Virus record (IMG/VR): IMGVR_UViG_2654588052_000002
Location: 1-64,000 of that record
DNA: 64,000 nucleotides
Direction: 5' to 3' (one strand)
DNA from: an uncultured virus (IMG/VR IMGVR_UViG_2654588052_000002)
Lineage: Duplodnaviria; Heunggongvirae; Uroviricota; Caudoviricetes
Both the position numbers and the translations under genes were made by a program. Below the pieces are notes generated by a model. That model had not been told where the DNA came from. It saw only the letters and a program-made list of their open reading frames with translations, and searched no databases. Below, piece by piece: positions 3,313 through 47,769 of the stretch (the first letter of the stretch is position 1; the number at the start of each line of letters is the position of its first letter).

Positions 3313-4170
3313 ATGGCAGATGTTAAATGGATAAAGCTCTCTACTAGTATGTTTGAAGATGAAAAGATTCGATTAATTGAAAGTTTACCAGATGCAGATA
3401 CACTACTAATTATTTGGATTAAATTGTTGTCTCAAGCGGGCAGAACAAATGCAAATGGTTACATTTTCTTGAGTGAAAACATTCCTTTCACAGAAGAAAT
3501 GCTCTCAACACTTTTTAATAGACCGATAGCAACTGTGAGACTCGCACTACAAACGTTTAAGCAATTCGGAATGATAGACATCACTGATGATCAGTACATA
3601 TGCATCTCGAATTGGGAGAAACATCAGAACATCGATGGGTTAGAACGTGTAAAACAATTGAATGCAGAACGAAACAAAAAGTACCGTGAACGTAAGAAAC
3701 AACAGCAATTAGCACTAGAAAATAAGGGTGAAGAAAATGACGTTTCCGTGACGTCACGTGACGATACAGATATAGAAGAAGATAAAGAAAAAGATAAAAA
3801 GAAGAAAGAAAAACCTTCCCGTCACAAGTTTGAAACTTGCGACACCAATGGGGCTAAATATCTATTTGAAAAAATTAAGGGGAACAATCCTAAGCAAAAA
3901 GAACCTAACTTCAATAATTGGGCAAATGAATTTAGATTAATGCGAGAACGTGACAACAGAGAACCACAAGAGATTAAGGATGTTATTGATTGGTGCCAAG
4001 CTGATCCATTCTGGCAGGGGAACATTTTATCTCCTAAAAAGCTACGGGAAAAGTTCGATCAACTAACTATTCAAATGAAATCTAAAAAGGGAGCGAAGAA
4101 CAATGCAGAGAGCAGCGGCAGCAATACCAACCGATATAGCCAAAAAGGTGAATATGACTATGGATTCTGA
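3313..4170 (+). CDS. Phage replisome organiser / replication initiator
   Basis: N-terminal WIKLSTSMFEDEKIRLIE..IWIKLL; C-terminal FWQGNILSPKKLREKFDQL. Confidence 0.88.
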   Translation: MADVKWIKLSTSMFEDEKIRLIESLPDADTLLIIWIKLLSQAGRTNANGYIFLSENIPFTEEMLSTLFNRPIATVRLALQTFKQFGMIDITDDQYICISNWEKHQNIDGLERVKQLNAERNKKYRERKKQQQLALENKGEENDVSVTSRDDTDIEEDKEKDKKKKEKPSRHKFETCDTNGAKYLFEKIKGNNPKQKEPNFNNWANEFRLMRERDNREPQEIKDVIDWCQADPFWQGNILSPKKLREKFDQLTIQMKSKKGAKNNAESSGSNTNRYSQKGEYDYGF

Positions 4171-4912
4171 TGTGTGTGATACACATGGCATGAATAAGAT
4201 GAAGTTCGGTGGACAAGTTGTTTGCCCTCGATGTTTCCTTGAAAACGATAGTAAGAAGCTTCAGCAACAGGAACAAGCGAAATACGATGCAGATAAAGCA
4301 AATGAGAAGAAGTTCATGTTCCATCAACAAAGTATGATTGCCGATAGCAATATTAAGAAAGCTAACTTTGATAACTACCAACCTACTAGTGAGGAAGGAG
4401 CGAAGAACCTAGAACTCGCAAAGGCCATCGCAACGGATTATCTCAATGGGAATATTTTTAACACGATTATGGCCGGGAATTGCGGAGCAGGGAAAACACA
4501 TCTTGCTTACGCTATAGCGGATCAGCTTGCAGGAGCAGGGAAGTCAGTTGTCTTCGTTACAGTTGGCGAATTGCTAAGGAAGATTAAAAGTACGTTCAGT
4601 AAAGATTCAACATTAACTGAAGATGCAATCATTCGAAGTCTAGTAAAAGCAGAAGTTTTAATTGTCGATGATTTAGGAGCAGAGTTAGGCGCATTAGATG
4701 CCAATACGAAAGCAACAAACTTCATTAATAGGGTACTATTCGATGTTTTCGATGGTAGGCAAGGTAAATCTACTATCTTCACGACAAACCTCACAGGAAA
4801 GCGTTTAGATGAGGCATATGACGAGCGAATCGTATCACGAATTCTTAATAATTTTAGAACAATAAAATTCGAAGAAACAAAGGATTACAGAAGAAAGGCA
4901 TTGCCATTTTAA
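4103..4912 (+). CDS. DnaC/IstB-like helicase loader ATPase
   Basis: Walker A GNCGAGKTHLA, Walker B LIVDDLGAE, TIFTTN, RIVSRI. Confidence 0.9.
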   Translation: MQRAAAAIPTDIAKKVNMTMDSDVCDTHGMNKMKFGGQVVCPRCFLENDSKKLQQQEQAKYDADKANEKKFMFHQQSMIADSNIKKANFDNYQPTSEEGAKNLELAKAIATDYLNGNIFNTIMAGNCGAGKTHLAYAIADQLAGAGKSVVFVTVGELLRKIKSTFSKDSTLTEDAIIRSLVKAEVLIVDDLGAELGALDANTKATNFINRVLFDVFDGRQGKSTIFTTNLTGKRLDEAYDERIVSRILNNFRTIKFEETKDYRRKALPF

Positions 4913-33125: not shown

Positions 33126-33167
33126 GAAGAAAAAGACCGCCCTTTTTTTGGGAAGGGCGGTCTAATA

Positions 33168-33495: not shown

Positions 33496-34866
33496 TTACT
33501 TATTTGGTACTTTTCGTACATCTGAAATCCATTCTAAAGGCCAGTTTTGTGGAAGTAAAACTTGATCTCCACCACCTTTCAACGTAGTCCCGCTCATTGT
33601 GTATTGTTCAGCTACTTTTCCAAGATTAAGAGTTTCGCCTTCCGGAACTTTAATCGTAGCCTCATACATTCTACTATTTTTCCATTCCGGTAAAAGAGCT
33701 GTATCTAGTTTCGCTTGTATTCGATTTTGAGCGGGGACAGTTGTAGCGAAACCACCGCCTGCATCAGCACTATGCCCAAATGTACGATATAATGTTACCT
33801 CTTCATTAGTTTTTACAGTTCTAAATACTCCATCTGTAAATGAATCTCCAATCCAAGGTGGTAAATTCGCTTTTTCTATTTCAGTTACTTGATGATCGAT
33901 ACTTGTAGCATATTTTTTTATGTCTGAGGCACGATCAGCTTTTTTAATAGTATTAGCAGCTTCAACTGCATTCGCAGTCATTTTTACCCCTTTGCCAACT
34001 TTGGCAATTTTTCCGACTGGTGTAAGACCAGCTACAGCCATTCCTCCAGCAAAAACCCTTTCCCAAGTGGAAAGTTTTTCGCCAGTAGATGGATCGATAC
34101 CGTCCCAAGCACGACGAACATCGTATTCACCACTTATTTCACCAGCAATATCTCTAGCTAATTTTTTACCATCAAATCCTTTTTCCTCCGAAGAAAGTTT
34201 ACCACACATTGCACCTTCTTCGATTGATTTATCAGCCTGACGCTTCCTATCTTCTTCAATCGCTTGAATAGAAGTAGTCCACTCCATATTCAACACTTGC
34301 GTACTAAATGTTCCGCTTGCAGGACTAAATCCTTTGCCACTTTGCACTTCCGCAAGACCTTGTGCGATACTCGCAGCTAGTTGAAGTGCTGTAGCATAGT
34401 TATTGCTAGACGCTTGATTAAATTCATATAGGTGATTTAACTTTTCTTGAAGTTTGTGTCTCATGACAGTAAAAAGATTCGCCATAGCGTCCATACTTGG
34501 CATCGGCATAGCTTGACTGATAGCTTCCATACTTGCCTTCATTCGGTCAATTTCTCGAATTTGTTCTAATATTTCTTGTTCAATTACATCAGTTGAAGCG
34601 ACCTGTGATTGAAATTGACTTGGAAAGGCATCATTCTGATGAATTAGTTCTTCACACAAGTAAATAATCCCTTGGGCTAAGGGACGGAAGGTTTGTACAA
34701 AAAATGCTTTGGCACTACTATATGTTTGTCCTTGTAGAACAGTATCAATTGCAAAAGCATCAATCGACTGAATAACTTGTTCCATACCTTGAATGGTAGC
34801 GGTACATACAGCATTCATATCTTGTGTTTGTGTATGCACTTCCCCTAAATACATATTTAAACTCAA
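33496..34866 (-). CDS. LXG (T7SSb) polymorphic toxin with pre-toxin TG domain
   Basis: LQGQTYSSAKAFF LXG-type N-terminus; GIDPSTGEKLSTWER PT-TG; C-terminal YRTFG..LLPEW.N..GGGDQ domain. Confidence 0.85.
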   Translation of the reverse strand: MSLNMYLGEVHTQTQDMNAVCTATIQGMEQVIQSIDAFAIDTVLQGQTYSSAKAFFVQTFRPLAQGIIYLCEELIHQNDAFPSQFQSQVASTDVIEQEILEQIREIDRMKASMEAISQAMPMPSMDAMANLFTVMRHKLQEKLNHLYEFNQASSNNYATALQLAASIAQGLAEVQSGKGFSPASGTFSTQVLNMEWTTSIQAIEEDRKRQADKSIEEGAMCGKLSSEEKGFDGKKLARDIAGEISGEYDVRRAWDGIDPSTGEKLSTWERVFAGGMAVAGLTPVGKIAKVGKGVKMTANAVEAANTIKKADRASDIKKYATSIDHQVTEIEKANLPPWIGDSFTDGVFRTVKTNEEVTLYRTFGHSADAGGGFATTVPAQNRIQAKLDTALLPEWKNSRMYEATIKVPEGETLNLGKVAEQYTMSGTTLKGGGDQVLLPQNWPLEWISDVRKVPNK

Positions 34867-34935: not shown

Positions 34936-35277
34936 TTATTTAGCATCAATAATATCAATAAATTTCAACGTTATTTTATTATAAAATGCATCCGTACAAA
35001 TTATAGATTTATTCAACGGATCAATATCAATGACGGTCATATAGCTAGTAAGTAAAAATCCATCTTCATAATATGTAATCAATATTTCTTCTTCAGAAAG
35101 CAGCGAACATAATAGTGTATTCTCAATAAGTTCTTGTTCATCCTGGGTTAATGTAGGGCGTTCTACTTTTGTCTTGTTTTTAATAATCTCACAGATACCT
35201 ACGAATTGTTCTGGCATCGCTGCGAATGGAGTCCATTTAACCATTCCTCTTCCTTTTGGCATATTAGCGTTGTTCAT
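34936..35277 (-). CDS. YolD-like protein
   Basis: RGMVKWTPFAAMPEQ motif, coupled to Y-family polymerase. Confidence 0.88.
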   Translation of the reverse strand: MNNANMPKGRGMVKWTPFAAMPEQFVGICEIIKNKTKVERPTLTQDEQELIENTLLCSLLSEEEILITYYEDGFLLTSYMTVIDIDPLNKSIICTDAFYNKITLKFIDIIDAK

Positions 35278-36539
35278 GATTTATGTCCCCCTAACAATGT
35301 GTTTCTGTATCTTGCTGTTGCACTATTTGTATACGAAATTCCTCTTAATATGCTGTTCTTACCAAATTTAGTGCGTATTTCGTCCATTACTTTCGTTAGT
35401 TTCATTTCTTTTTCTCGTTGTATTACATTATCGAATAGTGAGATTTGTTCTTCGCCTTCATGGATTAAGTTAGTTAAAGAAACATTTATGGATCTAATGG
35501 GCTCCCCAGTGTAAAACTTGTGTAAAAAATATGTACAAATCTTATATATATCCATTGTTAAATTGGTCGGTCGGTTCATAGTGTGAGTTTTTCTGAAGCC
35601 ACCAGAGTAATTTCTGCTATAACCAATGGAAAAATGAACAGTTTGAGCTAGTTTGTTTTGCCTTCGCATTCGATAACAAACTTCTTCTATATGCTCCAGT
35701 AGAATAATTGGAAACTCTTCTATGGTGTAATCGCGCATAAGTATTTGGCTTTTACCAATAGAAGTTGTTGCTGGAACATATTTTTCTGATATACGGCTAA
35801 AATCTATGCCGTTGCTATGTAAGTGCAATTCTTCGCCAATGACCCCGAAGCTTTGTTTTAAGTATTTAAGTGGGTATTGCGCTAAGTCTCCGATTGAATG
35901 AATTCCTTTTCGGTTTAACTTCGCTTCTGTTTTACCCGAAATCCCCCAAAACTTACTAAGTGGTTGTATTGGCCATAATTTTATGGGTACATTTTCGTAC
36001 TTCCAGTATGCTATGCAATCTTTCGTTTTCTTCGCTTCTACATCTAAGGCAACCTTGCTCATTAAAGGGTTTGGACCAATTCCTATCGTGCATTCAATTC
36101 GCGTCTTAGCATATATCTCTCGTTTGAATTTCAATGCAAATTCATATGGATCATTAGCAAATAAATGAATACTATCCGTAATGTCCATAAAGAACTCATC
36201 GATGGAATATTGGTGAAAATCCTCAATTGGCACGTATTGTAGGGCCAACTTAGTAATGAAATTAGAACATTTTATGTAAGTACTCATAATTGGATTTATC
36301 ACAAGGATATCTTTACGACGTGGTATCTCATACAATCTCGCCATTTTCTTAACGCCTAATGCTTTTAATGGTGGAGTTGCAGCCAAAACAATTGAACCAC
36401 TCCTATTCACATCACCAACTACAGCCAATTTAGTATGAAGTGGGTCTAATCCCATTTTGATGCACGATACACTGGCATAGAACGAACGAAGATCTACACA
36501 TAAAACAATTCGATTTGGCAATATTGAATAGTCATACAC
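35274..36539 (-). CDS. Y-family DNA polymerase (UvrX/ImpB/UmuC-like)
   Basis: CVDLRSFYASV, YSIDEFFMD, GIGPNPLMSKVALD, GGH C-terminus. Confidence 0.93.
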   Translation of the reverse strand: MYDYSILPNRIVLCVDLRSFYASVSCIKMGLDPLHTKLAVVGDVNRSGSIVLAATPPLKALGVKKMARLYEIPRRKDILVINPIMSTYIKCSNFITKLALQYVPIEDFHQYSIDEFFMDITDSIHLFANDPYEFALKFKREIYAKTRIECTIGIGPNPLMSKVALDVEAKKTKDCIAYWKYENVPIKLWPIQPLSKFWGISGKTEAKLNRKGIHSIGDLAQYPLKYLKQSFGVIGEELHLHSNGIDFSRISEKYVPATTSIGKSQILMRDYTIEEFPIILLEHIEEVCYRMRRQNKLAQTVHFSIGYSRNYSGGFRKTHTMNRPTNLTMDIYKICTYFLHKFYTGEPIRSINVSLTNLIHEGEEQISLFDNVIQREKEMKLTKVMDEIRTKFGKNSILRGISYTNSATARYRNTLLGGHKS

Positions 36540-37172: not shown

Positions 37173-38468
37173 GTGATATTTGAGTTAGTTAGTTCAGCTG
37201 CTGTCGGTGGTGTAGTCTTTCTATCAAAAATGCATCAAAAAGGAGCAACAAATGATGCATCCAAGATTCAAAGGATCTGCGCGAACTGCGGATTAAAAGT
37301 AAAAGAAGGGAAAGAGACTAGGACTATACAGCTGCTTCGCAAAACGAGGAATAATTGGGGAGTTGAATATGCGTATAGAATACCGCTTGGTCTTAGCTTC
37401 TCCGATTTCGAACAAAAAATACAACATTTAGAGGATGGATTAAATCACAAGAGCAAGGTTTATGATTTCAAACTACAAGACTTCAAATCTCTTCGACTGC
37501 GAAAAGATATCTTAAAACAAATACAAAACATCATAAATAAGAAAAAACTCGTTAGAAAGGAAATTGAGCTGTCTTACGATGGTTTATTAAAAATACGCGT
37601 TTATGAGAAAGGAATACCTAATTTCGTTAAATTTGTAGAGGATATGATGAGGCAATGTAGAGGTTGGGAGGTTCCGATTGGTTATACGAGGGATGGATTG
37701 ATAAAACATGATTTTGATCAACTAGCGCACATGATATCAGCCGGCATGACGGATATGGGTAAATCAAATGTATTAAAACTTATAATTACATCCCTGGTAC
37801 GCAACCAACCAGAAAATACAAAGCTATTCCTTATAGATTTGAAGGGTGGTCTCTCTTTTAACCGTTACAGATTCTTAAACCAGGTCGAATCAATTGCGAA
37901 GAATCCAGAGGAAGCCCTAGAGACTCTAAGGGAATTGCAAGATAAACTGAATGCTAGAAACGAATACTTACTAGAAAAAGGATACGAAGATATAAAAGAA
38001 GCTGGGGATCCAGTACGTTACTTTGTAATTGTTGATGAAGCAGCCGACATAGCGCCATATCAGGAGTGCAGGGACATCATTGTTGATATAGGGCGTCGTG
38101 GCAGGGCAGCGGGATTTCGCTTGGTGTATGCGACACAGTACCCAACAAACGAAGCGTTACCATCGCAGCTACGACAAAACATTGGCGCTCGTGTTTGTTT
38201 TAGATTACAGACAGAGGCAGGGAGCCGTGCTGTACTTGATGAGGGCGGCGCAGAAATGCTTCCTAACATAAAGGGGAGAGCGATATACCAAACAAATGAG
38301 AAGAAGGTCCTACAGACGGTTTATATCGATAATAAGCAAATAGATAACATCATAAAGCCACACATTAACATCAGAGCGAGGAAGGAGCATGAAGATGCAA
38401 AAACTAGCCATGAAGGAAGCGAGAACGGAAAGTATACTCTTGAGCTTGAAGAAACTCGGCTTTCTTAG
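37173..38468 (+). CDS. FtsK/SpoIIIE-family ATPase
   Basis: AGMTDMGKS, LIDLKGG, VIVDEAA, GRAAG..ATQYP. Confidence 0.9.
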   Translation: MIFELVSSAAVGGVVFLSKMHQKGATNDASKIQRICANCGLKVKEGKETRTIQLLRKTRNNWGVEYAYRIPLGLSFSDFEQKIQHLEDGLNHKSKVYDFKLQDFKSLRLRKDILKQIQNIINKKKLVRKEIELSYDGLLKIRVYEKGIPNFVKFVEDMMRQCRGWEVPIGYTRDGLIKHDFDQLAHMISAGMTDMGKSNVLKLIITSLVRNQPENTKLFLIDLKGGLSFNRYRFLNQVESIAKNPEEALETLRELQDKLNARNEYLLEKGYEDIKEAGDPVRYFVIVDEAADIAPYQECRDIIVDIGRRGRAAGFRLVYATQYPTNEALPSQLRQNIGARVCFRLQTEAGSRAVLDEGGAEMLPNIKGRAIYQTNEKKVLQTVYIDNKQIDNIIKPHINIRARKEHEDAKTSHEGSENGKYTLELEETRLS

Positions 38469-38985
38469 CAGGAAGCAAATCCAAGTACTCCATGACCTTG
38501 GTGGTGACAGGAATGCTTCCCGTGTAATGAAGTCTCTTGAAGAATATGTTTCTAGCTTTAGGGATGGAGAGAAGGTGTATTATCTCAACAAAGAAGGGCG
38601 CGAACGTATCGGAAGCAAGAAAATACTCAAGCGTTCGAATCAATTTCGCCATTACATTATGAGGAATGATATCTACATCGCTTATGAATGCCCGAAAACG
38701 TGGAAGCAGGAAGTGAAAATGAATGTGAAAGGTATCGTTTCCATAATTGCAGATGCACTATTCACTGATAATGGCCGTTATCACATTGTAGAAGTGGATC
38801 ATGAGCAAAAGATGAGCGCAAACCGTATCAAGATGCAGAAGTATCGTAAATTGATTGAATGCAATGTGTTTGAGAAGCCACCTAAATTTATTTGGTACAC
38901 CACAACGGAATATCGCAGAAAACAACTCCAGAAGCTTTGTGAGGGATTGGATTGCAACATCTTTACAGTTACTGATTTCCATTAA
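38389..38985 (+). CDS. Replication-relaxation (Replic_Relax) family protein
   Basis: wHTH then HYIMRND, IADALF, IVEVD, KMQKY. Confidence 0.75.
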   Translation: MKMQKLAMKEARTESILLSLKKLGFLSRKQIQVLHDLGGDRNASRVMKSLEEYVSSFRDGEKVYYLNKEGRERIGSKKILKRSNQFRHYIMRNDIYIAYECPKTWKQEVKMNVKGIVSIIADALFTDNGRYHIVEVDHEQKMSANRIKMQKYRKLIECNVFEKPPKFIWYTTTEYRRKQLQKLCEGLDCNIFTVTDFH

Positions 38986-43874: not shown

Positions 43875-44141
43875 TTATTTTTTATCAGAAACTATGTCAT
43901 TTAGAATGTTCTGCTCATGTGCATTCAATTTATTAGCAATGTAGTAATCCAATATTTCATCAATAAGCTCATAATTTTTCATGTCTTTCATTGTGCAAAT
44001 GGTCTTTATTTTATTAAGTGTTTCAGGCGATACTTTTATATTTTTTCTGTCTGCTGCTGACAATGAATTCTTTTTCTTTGTCGCAGGATTATCTTGAACA
44101 GGTGTCACAGTCACTAAGTATTTTTTATCCAAATTGACCAC
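43875..44141 (-). CDS. Ribbon-helix-helix-like small protein
   Basis: KNIKVSPETLNKIK..YELIDEILDYY; similar to the upstream partition adaptor. Confidence 0.65.
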   Translation of the reverse strand: MVNLDKKYLVTVTPVQDNPATKKKNSLSAADRKNIKVSPETLNKIKTICTMKDMKNYELIDEILDYYIANKLNAHEQNILNDIVSDKK

Positions 44142-44254: not shown

Positions 44255-44628
44255 TTAAATCTCTGTTAATAGCTTGAATTTTCTTTTCTGTTCAGGCGTT
44301 AGCTCATTTTCTACATAGCGATCTATAAGTAAATCGATGATTTCATAAGCGAATTTTGTGTTTGTAAGTTTCATTAATACTTCTAGTTCTTCTTTTGATT
44401 GATTAGAAATTTTAATGCTGCCTTGCTGATTTTTAAATTTCTTTTTTGATTCAGTTTTTTCGTTTCTTTTTTCTTTTCGAGTTACTTGTTTTTCTTCAGA
44501 CTTAGGTTGAGAAGGAGTAACTGGAACCTCGTTATTTTCCACCGTAGCTTGTCCTTGCTCTGGTACATAAGGCTCAGTAGGTTCAAAGTTACTTTTCTTT
44601 CTACCTAATAAACCAGGAGTTCTCGCCA
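44255..44628 (-). CDS. Centromere-binding adaptor (type Ib ParB/ParG-like)
   Basis: Disordered N-terminus plus RHH-like SIKISNQSKEEL..YEIIDLLIDRY; directly after parA. Confidence 0.7.
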
Positions 44629-44630
44629 TT

Positions 44631-45452
44631 TTAAACACCAACCTTCATTTTTTCAAACATATCAATACGAGATAATAATTCATCACTAATTGTTTCGTAT
44701 AGTTCAATTACATTCATATCATGTCTATCTTTTTCAGTGATACCATTAACATCAAATCGTTTAATACGCTCCATTTGAGGAACGATGTTTTTGAATAGGT
44801 TTTCTTCACCGAAAATTTCACGTGCATTTTCCATGATATATTCGTCAACCTTACCGTTATTTTTTAATAGAACAGGAAGAATACCGACTACTTCAATATC
44901 AAGATCATATTGTTCTTTTAACTTGATAAGCTCATTAACATAATTCTCAGCGCCAGTAAGAGAACGTTCTTGTGTTTGTAGAGCGATTAGAACATAATCA
45001 GAAGCTACAACGGCGTTCTTTGTAACTTCTAATGACATTGGAGGAACATCGATAAATATGTAGTCGTATTTATGCTTTATCTTTTCAAGCAATCCTCGGA
45101 AGTAATGATCTTCTTCAGCTTCCGAAGAACAATTTTTATAAAGGAATTTTGCGAAGTCCTGGAAATCAACGTAAGAAGGAATTAAATATAAGTTATCCGT
45201 AATTTCTACTTCTAAGCCATCCAAGTTCCCCTCTTGTATCCCTTTCATTAATGTTTTTTCAACAGTAACGATTTCATCAGGGTTAAGGATTGATTTTGTT
45301 AACATTAAAGATTTTGTTGCGTTACTTTGTGGATCAAGATCAACGAGTAATGTACGCTTACCTTTTTTAGCAAATTCATAAGAGTTCAATACAGCATTTG
45401 TGGTTTTACCGACTCCACCTTTGTAATTACCTACAGTAATTGTAATGGCCAT
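44631..45452 (-). CDS. parA: ParA Walker-type partition ATPase (type Ib)
   Basis: KGGVGKTT, VDLDPQSNAT, YIFIDVPP; no N-terminal HTH. Confidence 0.92.
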   Translation of the reverse strand: MAITITVGNYKGGVGKTTNAVLNSYEFAKKGKRTLLVDLDPQSNATKSLMLTKSILNPDEIVTVEKTLMKGIQEGNLDGLEVEITDNLYLIPSYVDFQDFAKFLYKNCSSEAEEDHYFRGLLEKIKHKYDYIFIDVPPMSLEVTKNAVVASDYVLIALQTQERSLTGAENYVNELIKLKEQYDLDIEVVGILPVLLKNNGKVDEYIMENAREIFGEENLFKNIVPQMERIKRFDVNGITEKDRHDMNVIELYETISDELLSRIDMFEKMKVGV

Positions 45453-45477
45453 TTTTAACACTCCAGTTATAGTTTTT

Positions 45478-45825
45478 GAAATTTCCCTATATCCCTTTAT
45501 AGAAATAGGGAAAAATAGAAATAGGGAAATAGGGATATTTCTAACTATAGAAATAGGGATATTTCTATATCTTTATGAAAATTATAACAATGATATTTGG
45601 GTTATGCAATAGAATCATAGAGTTAGTAATTAATAACAGAAACGTTGATATTAAAAGATTTTTCAGTTGTATGAAGTATAGAAATTTAAGTAATAAATCT
45701 GAATTTTTTTATAGGAGATAGTAGACGCAAAAATAATAAAAATAGGGAAATATAGATATAGGGAAAAGGGGAAATATCCCTATATCTATAAGTGGAAATA
45801 GGGAAATAGGGAAATAGGGATATTA
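45478..45825. repeat. parS/operator clusters of ATAGGGA(A/T)AT / ATAGAAAT units
   Basis: Multiple tandem and inverted copies at 45478-45570 and 45738-45825 upstream of parA. Confidence 0.75.
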
Positions 45826-45989
45826 TTCAGAAAGTGTGCAAATTCACTGTTTACAAAGGATAATGCTTGTTGTAACGTAGTAAACAACAAGCACCATTCT
45901 ACAAAACAAAACATAATTTGATATTTTACATAAATGAAGATCATGAAGATTGAACGAGATAAATTAAAGACAATTGAATATGAACACAA

Positions 45990-46166
45990 AACAAAAAGCC
46001 ACTCCCGTATGCTAATGGCTACCAACCTTTAGCGGGAATGACTTGCTCTAGCAAGTGTACCACCACTTGACTAGAAATTAGCTGTATTAACCCACAGTGT
46101 TAACGTTTAAGAAGTGTACCACCACTAACCTTAAACAACTATGCCTTTTCACGAGGCTTCTTTGAT
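45990..46166 (-). ncRNA. Candidate antisense copy-control RNA (~175 nt)
   Basis: SigA promoter TTGAAT-N17-TAAAAT (46201-46173); hairpins with GUGGUA and UUGGUAG loops; G-U containing terminator plus U-run. Confidence 0.7.
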
Positions 46167-46249
46167 ATACCCATTTTATCTATTGTTTGACTAAAATTCA
46201 ACTAGTAAATGCTAGAATTGTATTTTTTGTAGTCAAAAGATATATAGCG

Positions 46250-46321
46250 GGCATCTCTAAACCTAGAAGTCTTGTGAATCTACAGGCCATTTAGGAATTG
46301 GAGATGCCTTTTTGTTTTTTG
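46250..46321 (+). terminator. Long terminator/attenuator-like hairpin
   Basis: GGCATCTCTAA..TTGGAGATGCC followed by TTTTTGTTTTTT. Confidence 0.7.
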
Positions 46322-46880
46322 TTCGCGTGGAATTGCCTGATACCACGTAAATAAAAACTGATAAGCCGTAATTTCGTGCTTCTATATAGAGGGAACGTGT
46401 TACGTGCGTGGCTAGCTGTTGGTCGTGCAGGGGGTACAGAGTATGCGCCTACAAAAACAGCACCCCTCATTAGAATCCTGTTCTTCTGGTGAGGGAGGGC
46501 GAGAACTTGCCCAGGGACGATTCCCTAAAAGGTTCGGGAGGTTATCGTTAGCATTACGGTGCTAGGGAGTACATTCAGTTTGTCGTGTAGGGACGATATT
46601 ACAAGGACAAGCCATAGAAAAAGGATGTATGCGGTGAAAATCGCTGAGTGAACAGGGTCTATACATACGGATACCTTATAAGTGACCGCATGGCGAAAAC
46701 AAGACGCTTATCCATCTATTTTGATCGATTACTTTTTTGTGATCTTTCAAAGTAGGGGATAAATTTGCCTTCCAGCCGTGTTCCATAATCGTTCCCACAT
46801 GATAAAAACCCTCAAGACCTTCAGTCAAGCTTAATTACGAAGAAAAGCAGAAAAATATGAGAGTGTTTAACTCATGGGGG
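46322..46880 (+). ncRNA. Candidate ~550-nt structured RNA / replication origin region
   Basis: ORF-free, GC-enriched; many stems with G-U pairs, UACG and GAAA tetraloops; long-range GGGAACG/CGTTCCC. Confidence 0.6.
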
Positions 46881-47091
46881 AATGAATCACTAAGATAGAG
46901 GAATAAATATAGGATTTACTACTTTTTTGGTTAGAGGATAAGGGGACGGATGGTAGAATAGGTTTTATTGCAAGATTTGGTTTTACACATCGGATATAGT
47001 ACGTGAAATTTATAAGGTTAATTTCTTGTTTATAGAAATTAAGTATTATTTTACAATTGATTAGAAGGATAAAATTTAAGGGGAATATTTT

Positions 47092-47769
47092 ATGACTAAT
47101 AATCTTATAGAGAAGAATTGGATAGATGATTTTATTAAAACAGATGTATTTTCAGAGGCTTTAGGTATGGTATGGCGTAATGGTTATGAATCAGGAGGTT
47201 ATTTTCAATTCACTCATAAGTCACAAGTGATAGTAAAAAAGTTTGCTGATTTCTTTGGGAAAGAAACAAGATCAAGATATTGTGAAGATAAAGGGTATGT
47301 GGAATGGTATATGTCTATGAATAGTGACCATCCATTTATTACAAAGGTAAAAGAATTTGGTTGGACACCGATACGAGGAAAATCTAGGTTATTTCCTAAA
47401 GGTGAGTTTAATAAAAAAATATTCATTAAAAAATATGTTTTATTGAGGCATGAACTTGGCACGATCAAAGTTAAACGACCTAAAAATAAAATTTATGTTA
47501 GACCACGCTTTCGTATTCATGGGTCTGAAGATATCTTGGAGCATTTAAATAATTTTATGTTTGAAGAATTAGGCATTAAGAAGAAAAAATTACAAACTGA
47601 CGGGAAAATACCAAAAGCAAAAATTTTATATTTTCAATCTTACAAAGATATAGAGAGTATTTTGATATATATTGGAGCTTCAGAGACATTAGAAACGTTG
47701 TATTCGTTCGATTTAGGATTTCATGATGCTGAAGATGAAGAATTTAAGAAGACCGATCTAGGGAAATAA
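47092..47769 (+). CDS. Degenerate LAGLIDADG-fold-like protein
   Basis: EALGMVWRNG and FIKKYVLLRHELG at the two motif positions; IHGSEDILEHLNNFMFEELGI. Confidence 0.55.
   Translation: MTNNLIEKNWIDDFIKTDVFSEALGMVWRNGYESGGYFQFTHKSQVIVKKFADFFGKETRSRYCEDKGYVEWYMSMNSDHPFITKVKEFGWTPIRGKSRLFPKGEFNKKIFIKKYVLLRHELGTIKVKRPKNKIYVRPRFRIHGSEDILEHLNNFMFEELGIKKKKLQTDGKIPKAKILYFQSYKDIESILIYIGASETLETLYSFDLGFHDAEDEEFKKTDLGK

Follow-up and report, generated by a model that had tools for sequence, protein, structure and literature searches.

Vectors of the pHT series carry a 2.9-kb BalI fragment of the plasmid pHT1030. A short gene-free region of this plasmid suffices for its Rep-independent replication, and its protein SpbA has a mass of 15 kDa. 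The title of a 1992 paper reportedly called pHT1030 a novel type of replicon. The origin, ori1030, is known from B. thuringiensis and from the pHT304/pHT315 and pBS0E vectors, and a vector origin related to the replicon described here has been in use since the early 1990s. The accessible text of PMC5678133 states that ori1030 serves as replicative origin and gives 15-25 copies. A literature search, made mostly in journals that require no subscription, yielded no account of the mechanism of pHT1030 or of the RNA described below.

The RNAI loops of ColE1 include the sequence UUGGUAG, and the ColE1 RNA has a G-run followed by an A-run at its 3' end. The accessible part of PMC9743546 defines the ColE1-type replicons as class B and states that Inc18 replicons (pIP501, pAMbeta1) require their Rep. 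ARRPOF of the Fusobacterium plasmid pKH9 is a structured motif in a 1-kb gene-free region that suffices for rep-independent replication; the plasmid motifs in the accessible part of that source average 223-349 nt (PMC5737381). The class E origin oriLS20 of the Bacillus plasmid pLS20 measures ~1.1 kb, has no rep gene, is flanked by a partition module and is defined by DnaA boxes (PMC8557374, accessible part).

The window analysed here, a stretch of 64,000 nucleotides, is most of a 71,771-base phage-plasmid of the B. cereus group. Its segment 45850-46950 is a conserved non-coding module consisting of a sense promoter, an antisense-overlapped leader, a terminator and a structured RNA. Likeness to ColE1 extends to the lack of a Rep common to the carriers, the long structured RNA, the overlapping, multi-hairpin predicted antisense RNA, the YUNR loops and the G-run followed by an A-run at the 3' end. 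However, the RNA has no sequence or Rfam similarity to RNAI or RNAII and the host is a Firmicute. Moreover, ColE1 is controlled by refolding of the pre-primer (PMC4485353, accessible part), whereas control in the window apparently acts by termination before the RNA body. With Inc18 the module shares a predicted convergent antisense RNA over the leader, predicted alternative anti-terminator and terminator folds and a possible operator on the sense promoter, but in Inc18 a rep gene follows the attenuator and here a non-coding RNA. Because homology to the first and a rep gene behind the attenuator as in pIP501 are both missing, the element belongs to neither group. From ARRPOF it differs in that no Rfam family reaches an E-value of 5 on the region, and an antisense attenuator is absent from the accessible description of ARRPOF (PMC5737381). 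It is set apart from oriLS20 by description: the sequence TT(A/T)TNCACA does not occur inside 45830-46950, and a single relaxed match was found at 46981.

The gene-free region and its neighbours

The following features surround the module:

3313-4912, replisome organiser with loader
38389-38985, Replic_Relax gene
44255-44641, minus strand, partition adaptor gene
44631-45461, minus strand, parA (Pfam AAA_31)
45478-45828, AAATAGGG repeats, copy number tracking the ParA type
47092-47769, plus strand, LAGLIDADG-like ORF 47092 (Atlas neighbours LAGLIDADG_3 at 0.94)

The phage-plasmid carries phage genes for portal, capsid, tail, holin and amidase and also encodes the replisome organiser and loader, a resolvase, FtsK, Replic_Relax and ParA. 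Its named twin, NZ_CP010109.1, was 100% identical over the 1,121 bases queried; MOB-suite assigns a replicon type to this record. Plasmid prophages of this sort are described in PMC8026635, whose accessible part lists ParA, the adaptor, Replic_Relax and a phage initiator and does not mention a non-coding origin. Other cargo includes genes for an LXG-domain interbacterial toxin (33496-34866, minus strand) and a Y-family polymerase with YolD (35274-36539, minus strand). Past the window (G000 64126-68406), a pair of ATPase-like ORFs of 569 and 449 aa together with a partner of 288 aa look by eye like a defence cassette.

A gene-free kilobase beside par, noted earlier from the sequence, was confirmed: no gene lies between the end of parA at 45461 and the start of ORF 47092, and the twin record has no annotation there. 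Only three minus-strand frames of 50-79 aa overlap the region, and no plus-strand ORF of at least 50 aa was found within 45830-46950. The enrichment in GC reported for the region also held, with 40.5% in 46001-47000 vs 30.0% and 27.6% in the flanking kilobases. Cumulative GC skew over the whole genome did not mark the origin; its extremes, at 33160 and 66148, followed gene orientation.

The ParA encoded beside the element falls into three types, ~97%, 48% or 38% identical across carriers. In the phage-plasmids ParA and the repeats were swapped and the body stayed ~95% identical; these loci were collected via the element, whose presence in them is therefore by construction. Judged from these sequences, the neighbouring partition system is exchangeable. 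There were 7-11 copies of AAATAGGG in all 30 loci with a ParA at least 90% identical and 0-1 in the other 47, a pattern that argues for centromere-like sites of the parA system. As the repeats track the ParA type, their interpretation as origin iterons was rejected.

ORF 47092 had been considered a possible part of the replicon. This had to be given up, as only 6 of 67 loci carry the ORF, and the same rarity rules it out as an initiator. It has no Pfam match, belongs to phrog_6640 of unknown function, and is cargo outside the module.

Leader, antisense RNA and RNA body

The module contains these features:

45850-45878, plus strand, sense promoter TTTACA-17-TAACGT (evidence: hexamer conservation, RNA depth)
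45857-45900, inverted repeat over the sense -10 and start, conserved in phage-plasmid loci
45885-46321, plus strand, leader RNA with antisense target, hairpins, anti-terminator and terminator (fold z, homology, RNA depth)
45986-46166, minus strand, predicted antisense RNA of ~180 nt with 4-5 stem-loops and its own terminator
45986-46044, minus strand, antisense terminator, hairpin 46044-45996 plus U-tract, loop UUGGUAG at 46025-46019
46047-46075, minus strand, antisense hairpin with GUGGUA loop
46105-46136, minus strand, antisense hairpin with GUGGUA loop
46146-46171, plus strand, anti-terminator strand, pairing with the terminator 5' arm 46249-46280
46173-46201, minus strand, antisense promoter TTGAAT-17-TAAAAT (conservation in homologs)
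46249-46321, plus strand, intrinsic terminator (attenuator), stem 46249-46310 plus U-tract, -29.8 kcal/mol
46326-46830, plus strand, structured RNA body (~500 nt), proposed pre-primer (covariation)
46465-46494, 46546-46567, 46569-46630, 46578-46612, 46631-46644 and 46708-46762, plus strand, body helices
46540-46700, plus strand, most abundant part of the RNA (depth in run X22)
46682-46693 with 46783-46798, plus strand, long-range helix of the body
46755-46829, plus strand, conserved 3' end: G-run 46755-46758, A-run 46804-46808, GTCAAG 46824-46829

Both promoters, the two GUGGUA hairpins, the minus-strand terminator with its UUGGUAG loop and the long plus-strand terminator hairpin had been proposed in the sequence-only reading, and all were found in place. 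The reading had overlooked the anti-terminator strand and a small hairpin near 46081-46097.

Promoter-like strings were not more frequent in the region than expected by chance (12 found vs 15.4 expected), therefore the case for the promoters rests on conservation. Both hexamers of the sense promoter were unchanged, with a variable spacer, in 86 of 120 distinct loci; the remaining 34 have other leaders or promoters, and the small plasmids have a different promoter, TTG-17-TAaAAT, closer to the leader. Plus-strand RNA depth in run X22 (see below) was 0 in 45718-45854 and 3.0 in 45855-45991, and the sense transcript would start near 45885. The inverted repeat at 45857-45900 is a candidate repressor operator on account of its position. 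An 88-aa ORF (43875-44141, minus strand), which is distant kin of the par adaptor as indicated by shared weak PHROG matches, is a candidate for the protein that binds this palindrome.

In 23 of the 24 homologs the antisense promoter reached a score of 9/12 or more, its spacer varying freely, and the antisense terminator was also conserved. Folding z was -7.9 for the leader (45960-46345) and -4.0 for the antisense RNA. At the attenuator all 24 sequences had a hairpin (-19.8 to -43.6 kcal/mol) with a U-rich tract behind it; the stem sequences differed. Since the stems differ also in length, RNAalifold recovered only the base of the terminator from the leader alignment.

The predicted antisense RNA starts exactly over the anti-terminator strand, and its 5' end is complementary to it. 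The duplex of this strand with the terminator arm had an energy of -22.5 kcal/mol vs -9.8 +/- 2.7 for shuffles, none of 300 being as strong. When transcripts truncated at 46280-46300 were folded, ~19 anti-terminator base pairs formed and the terminator was absent; with the antisense-covered region blocked, ~2 of these pairs were left and the terminator began to form at 46300. At 46310 the terminator won whether the region was blocked or free, therefore any switch must be kinetic. An anti-terminator helix of at least 5 bp was found in 21 of 24 homologs but beat all 12 shuffles in only 5 of the 24, a test in which L002 was mis-parsed; the helix was kept mostly through identity and less through compensatory change. 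Pairing of the A-tract 45968-46001 with the U-tract 46305-46338 was rejected as an anti-terminator: the complementarity is real, but the terminator stem stays intact. Taken together, we consider it probable that read-through is controlled via antisense attenuation.

The UUGGUAG loop had been read as a match to ColE1 RNAI. The loop is indeed there, but it varies: among the 59 loops parsed out of 86 phage-plasmid loci 38 had UUGGUAG and 16 UUGGCG, and all 59 kept the YUNR motif. Variable loops with a conserved motif are what is expected of kissing loops according to the accessible part of PMC4485353. From the loop sequences, the likeness to RNAI is probably that of a conserved U-turn motif and not of descent.

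The body had a folding z of -3.9. In 19 diverse bodies 42 of 66 pairs changed on both sides and 96.5% of cells were paired; this structure was derived from the same alignment, and ten weaker RNAalifold pairs were excluded from the count. Shuffles gave 19.0 +/- 2.6 such pairs and slid structures 7-15. The structured RNA that had been postulated is thus borne out by covariation; many of the pairs are G-U. Its stems at 46464-46495 and 46497-46512 were likewise found, as were the UACG and GAAA loops. Comparison with Rfam, suggested in the same reading, gave no relevant family for the window (E 5) or 14 other loci, and the ARRPOF, GEBRO, PAGEV and Bacillus-plasmid models did not match the element in any of these. 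A covariance model of the core linked the loci L253 (E 3e-9) and L247 (E 7e-5), which blastn had left unlinked. In an HMM search of 246 sequences only Bacillus-type loci scored.

The long-range helix GGGAACG/CGTTCCC that had been predicted was rejected. The motifs exist, but they were not paired with each other in the MFE structure and occurred largely independently: of 124 bodies 47 had both, 21 and 24 only one and 32 neither. Instead, the 3' segment tracked 46682-46693, GTGACCG occurring with TTCCCAC in 80 of 86 bodies and GCAAGG with a CGCTTCAG-like segment in 25 of 28, without any cross combination. In the 19 bodies the G-run did not vary and part of the A-run varied little or not at all, and divergent bodies end similarly at the 3' side. 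By analogy with ColE1, 46755-46829 may be the site of an R-loop and of the switch from RNA to DNA.

Expression was assessed in 4 of the 23 RNA-seq runs listed. Run X22, of ordinary design and with a near-identical element, was the sole informative stranded library; the par genes set the orientation, the first mate being opposite to the RNA. Run X20 had 5 reads on the element, and the contigs X3 and X7 are strandless. In X22 plus-strand depth was 3-15 over the leader, then 79, rose to 2091 in 46540-46676, and fell to 305 in 46677-46813 and then to 12.8. The par genes had a depth of ~11, so that the core RNA stood at ~190 times the par level. Adapter read-through placed molecule ends at 46541 and 46547, and 46540-46700 is a candidate stable core or processed fragment. 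The X7 contig agreed in rank (body 113, par 37, leader 9), and a second, divergent element in X7 reached a depth of 989.

The antisense transcript was not detected in this one stranded library (depth 0.08 and 0), which counts, as weak evidence, against the model. Depth over the leader was also far below that over the core, opposite to what simple attenuation would give, and this too speaks against the model. If decay of the duplex by RNase III and size selection are assumed, the low depth of both leader and antisense RNA can be explained.

Carriers, ori1030 and the mode of replication

The module was found in 111 PLSDB records, 76 of which cover at least 80% of its length; all are from Bacillus, Peribacillus or Pseudalkalibacillus, and 95 are typed non-mobilizable. 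Among 104 host-family genomes 23 had it, as did 12 of 401 of the order, three of the latter with short fragments only. Plasmids of Peribacillus, Planococcus and Pseudalkalibacillus also carry it.

No protein was common to 18 whole carriers with 730 ORFs. The most widely shared were chance frames inside the element (13 of 18), which differ among homologs; the best real protein was a resolvase (11 of 18). Twelve carriers of 6.9-8.5 kb that were fetched, eight of them marked circular, had no annotated Rep, no MOB-suite replicon type and neither Replic_Relax nor RepA_N. Among 38 carriers, 14 had Replic_Relax and 3 had RepA_N; 4 of 15 near-complete phage records lacked Replic_Relax. Among 63 proteins, part of the annotated genes of the carriers, Pfam detected a Rep-family domain only in two 14-15-kb plasmids; there were weak DnaD_N-like HTH matches in the small plasmids L003 and L255. 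In three carriers of 14-15 kb, including BTB_15p (L004), the element is immediately preceded by a RepA_N-like gene, which may belong to a helper-induced second origin. These RepA_N/DnaD-like genes of satellite-like plasmids are located as follows:

L006:12836-13921, RepA_N/DnaD-like gene upstream of the element
L004:101-1141, RepA_N/DnaD-like gene upstream of the element
L257:6972-8240, RepA_N/DnaD-like gene upstream of the element

Of 18 replicons, which are related to one another, 17 had a positive non-coding GC skew (0.01 to 0.15) on the strand of the RNA. The sole exception carries its own annotated replication protein. This is weakly consistent with one-way replication.

Judged by sequence, ori1030 is the closest known system, having the leader in common but not the body or the stability genes. 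The leader was 64.8% identical over 383 columns to that of BTB_15p of Bt407 (L004:1372-1716), which overlaps a gene annotated spbB in an identical record; the BalI fragment that contains it measures 2,872 bp and also carries an ORF for a 15.2-kDa protein. From this annotation and the known sizes of the fragment and the protein, we take the BTB_15p region to be, almost certainly, the pHT1030/ori1030 replicon. The two loci share the antisense promoter and terminator, the order of promoter, antisense gene, terminator and structured body, and a similar 3' tail. However, the sense promoters are unlike, stability depends on spbA/spbB in one and parA and adaptor are found in the other, and no homology of the RNA bodies was detectable by blastn or the core covariance model (best E 1.4), only the ends being alike. 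The BTB_15p body had a fold z of -3.4 on the plus strand vs +0.6 on the other. The 134-aa, 15.2-kDa ORF, likely SpbA, has a PBECR nuclease fold (L004:2882-3465); a skipping-rope RNA comes after it on the same strand, a hint that stability may depend on a toxin-antitoxin-like system.

In plasmid pLM14 a leader with 93% identity to the BTB_15p type precedes a body with 83-88% identity to the window type, therefore these parts are exchangeable in nature. In the conjugative plasmid pH308197_29 (L009, 448-3582) a BTB_15p-type body lies behind an unrelated leader and beside a TubZ-type partition gene. Window-type bodies also occur behind unrelated leaders, in another phage group. Leaders may provide specificity and bodies priming, as modules spread across phage-plasmids, satellites, conjugative plasmids and islands.

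The sequence-only reading had proposed a Rep-less, RNA-controlled replicon. What stood of it is that the module is common to unrelated Rep-less plasmids, that its RNA is structured and expressed, and that the leader is of the pHT1030 type; that it is a Rep-less replicon is quite probable. If it is a replicon, the RNA would probably be its primer. The whole proposal, a plasmid-state origin without a plasmid-encoded Rep in which the RNA primes and antisense attenuation sets the copy number, we regard as somewhat favoured. RNA polymerase would start near 45885, at the promoter seen in the sequence, and make the leader. In a free leader, as the foldings suggest, 46146-46171 would pair with the 5' arm of the terminator and allow read-through. 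The convergent antisense RNA would meet the leader by U-turn loops and occupy the anti-terminator, so that the terminator 46249-46321 forms; the dose of antisense RNA would follow copy number and thus give negative feedback and incompatibility, as in pIP501. Read-through would yield the covarying, expressed RNA of ~500 nt. As in ColE1, its G-rich 3' end might stay hybridised to the template near 46755-46810, where host enzymes, probably RNase H and PolI and then the primosome, would make it the leading-strand primer in the plus direction. There is about an even chance that the elements form an undescribed, widespread family of RNA-primed, Rep-less Bacillales replicons, independent of ColE1, with attenuation gating the primer and with exchangeable leaders and bodies.

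If true, this would name the missing plasmid-state origin of many B. cereus-group phage-plasmids and an origin for small cryptic plasmids left blank in replicon typing. It would add a structured RNA family of ~500 nt absent from Rfam and bring ColE1-like RNA priming, combined with Inc18-type attenuation, to a Firmicute. The replication of ori1030 vectors and the differences between their copy-number variants would be explained as well. The replication mode of pHT1030, an old question, becomes testable with existing vectors, and the diversity of the loops points to a naturally occurring collection of compatible origins that could be used in engineering B. subtilis.

Distribution and linkage to par would equally fit a Rep-less origin whose RNA is not the primer. 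Transcription or an R-loop would open the DNA, or the RNA or displaced strand would recruit a primosome, and DnaG would prime; replication would then be independent of PolI and RNase H. A precedent is the Rep-less origin of the Bacillus plasmid pLS20, which was established in a strain mutant for PolI (PMC9743546, accessible part). The drop of the abundant RNA before the G-run and A-run, with a depth of 305 in 46677-46813 and 12.8 beyond, points the same way, but a used primer would likewise leave a truncated RNA. We consider this mechanism unlikely: no DnaA box of the form TT(A/T)TNCACA lies inside 45830-46950, and the order of G-run and A-run at the 3' end parallels that of ColE1.

Replication might instead be carried out by a conventional initiator, that is the organiser, Replic_Relax or a RepA_N-like protein, in cis or from a helper, the RNA module then having an accessory role under antisense control, for instance as maintenance, satellite-helper or anti-phage RNA. 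Initiator-like genes are indeed present in the window genome, and 3 of 38 carriers have one upstream of the element. The very high RNA level, the copies behind integrases in integrated islands and the satellite-like character of the small carriers (a terminase small subunit in L394) would also agree with an accessory role. However, none of the eight circular carriers of 6.9-8.5 kb has an annotated Rep, and no protein is universal. Furthermore, the RepA_N-like gene of BTB_15p (101-1141) lies outside the BalI fragment, which is sufficient for the pHT vectors. This possibility is therefore quite improbable.

That the element acts as folded single-stranded DNA (lagging-strand origin, transfer or packaging signal), with incidental transcription, is very improbable. 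Covariation cannot separate RNA from single-stranded DNA, as the accessible part of PMC5737381 says of plasmid motifs. But promoters are conserved on both strands with a terminator in front, the RNA is strand-specific at ~190 times the par level and rich in G-U pairs, the Rfam Bacillus-plasmid motif did not match, and 95 of the 111 carriers are typed non-mobilizable. Finally, a group I intron or homing-element remnant of the adjacent LAGLIDADG-like ORF 47092 is effectively refuted, since no intron model reached E <5 on the region, no gene is interrupted, and the ORF occurs in 6 of 67 loci while the RNA is ~95% conserved.

Other occurrences of leader and body

In small islands the body was found directly downstream of tyrosine integrases:

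L391:12189-13825, body downstream of tyrosine integrase
L392:10604-12280, body downstream of tyrosine integrase
L394:8498-10152, body downstream of tyrosine integrase

Two of these islands are on contigs of more than 5 Mb, and their neighbours include spo0A (L392) and sirA (L394). Resolvase, HTH or small-terminase genes come next in the islands, and the leaders differ yet keep an antisense-oriented promoter. Decayed core fragments (L266:1499-1659, L268:1444-1574 and L271:1499-1662) lie just past the 3' end of a chromosomal gene, which we take to be yajQ-like, and are possibly scars at an attachment site. An orphan body is found in L393, in a chromosome that also has a short phage remnant. In L290 and L269 the leader or body is apparently interrupted by unrelated DNA. 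The 1,629-bp 'plasmid' record NZ_CP053983.1 (L246), marked linear, contains little beyond one element and is probably an assembly fragment, being 99% identical to a 7.2-kb plasmid.

Preceded by a short leader, the body also occurs in a second phage-like group (L351, L310, L295, L331, L307, L276, L324, L315, L336 and L342). Most of its members have the palindrome TACGTGAATTCACGTA upstream of the body, and a half-match to it, TACGTGAAATT, is located at window position 47000, downstream of the element.
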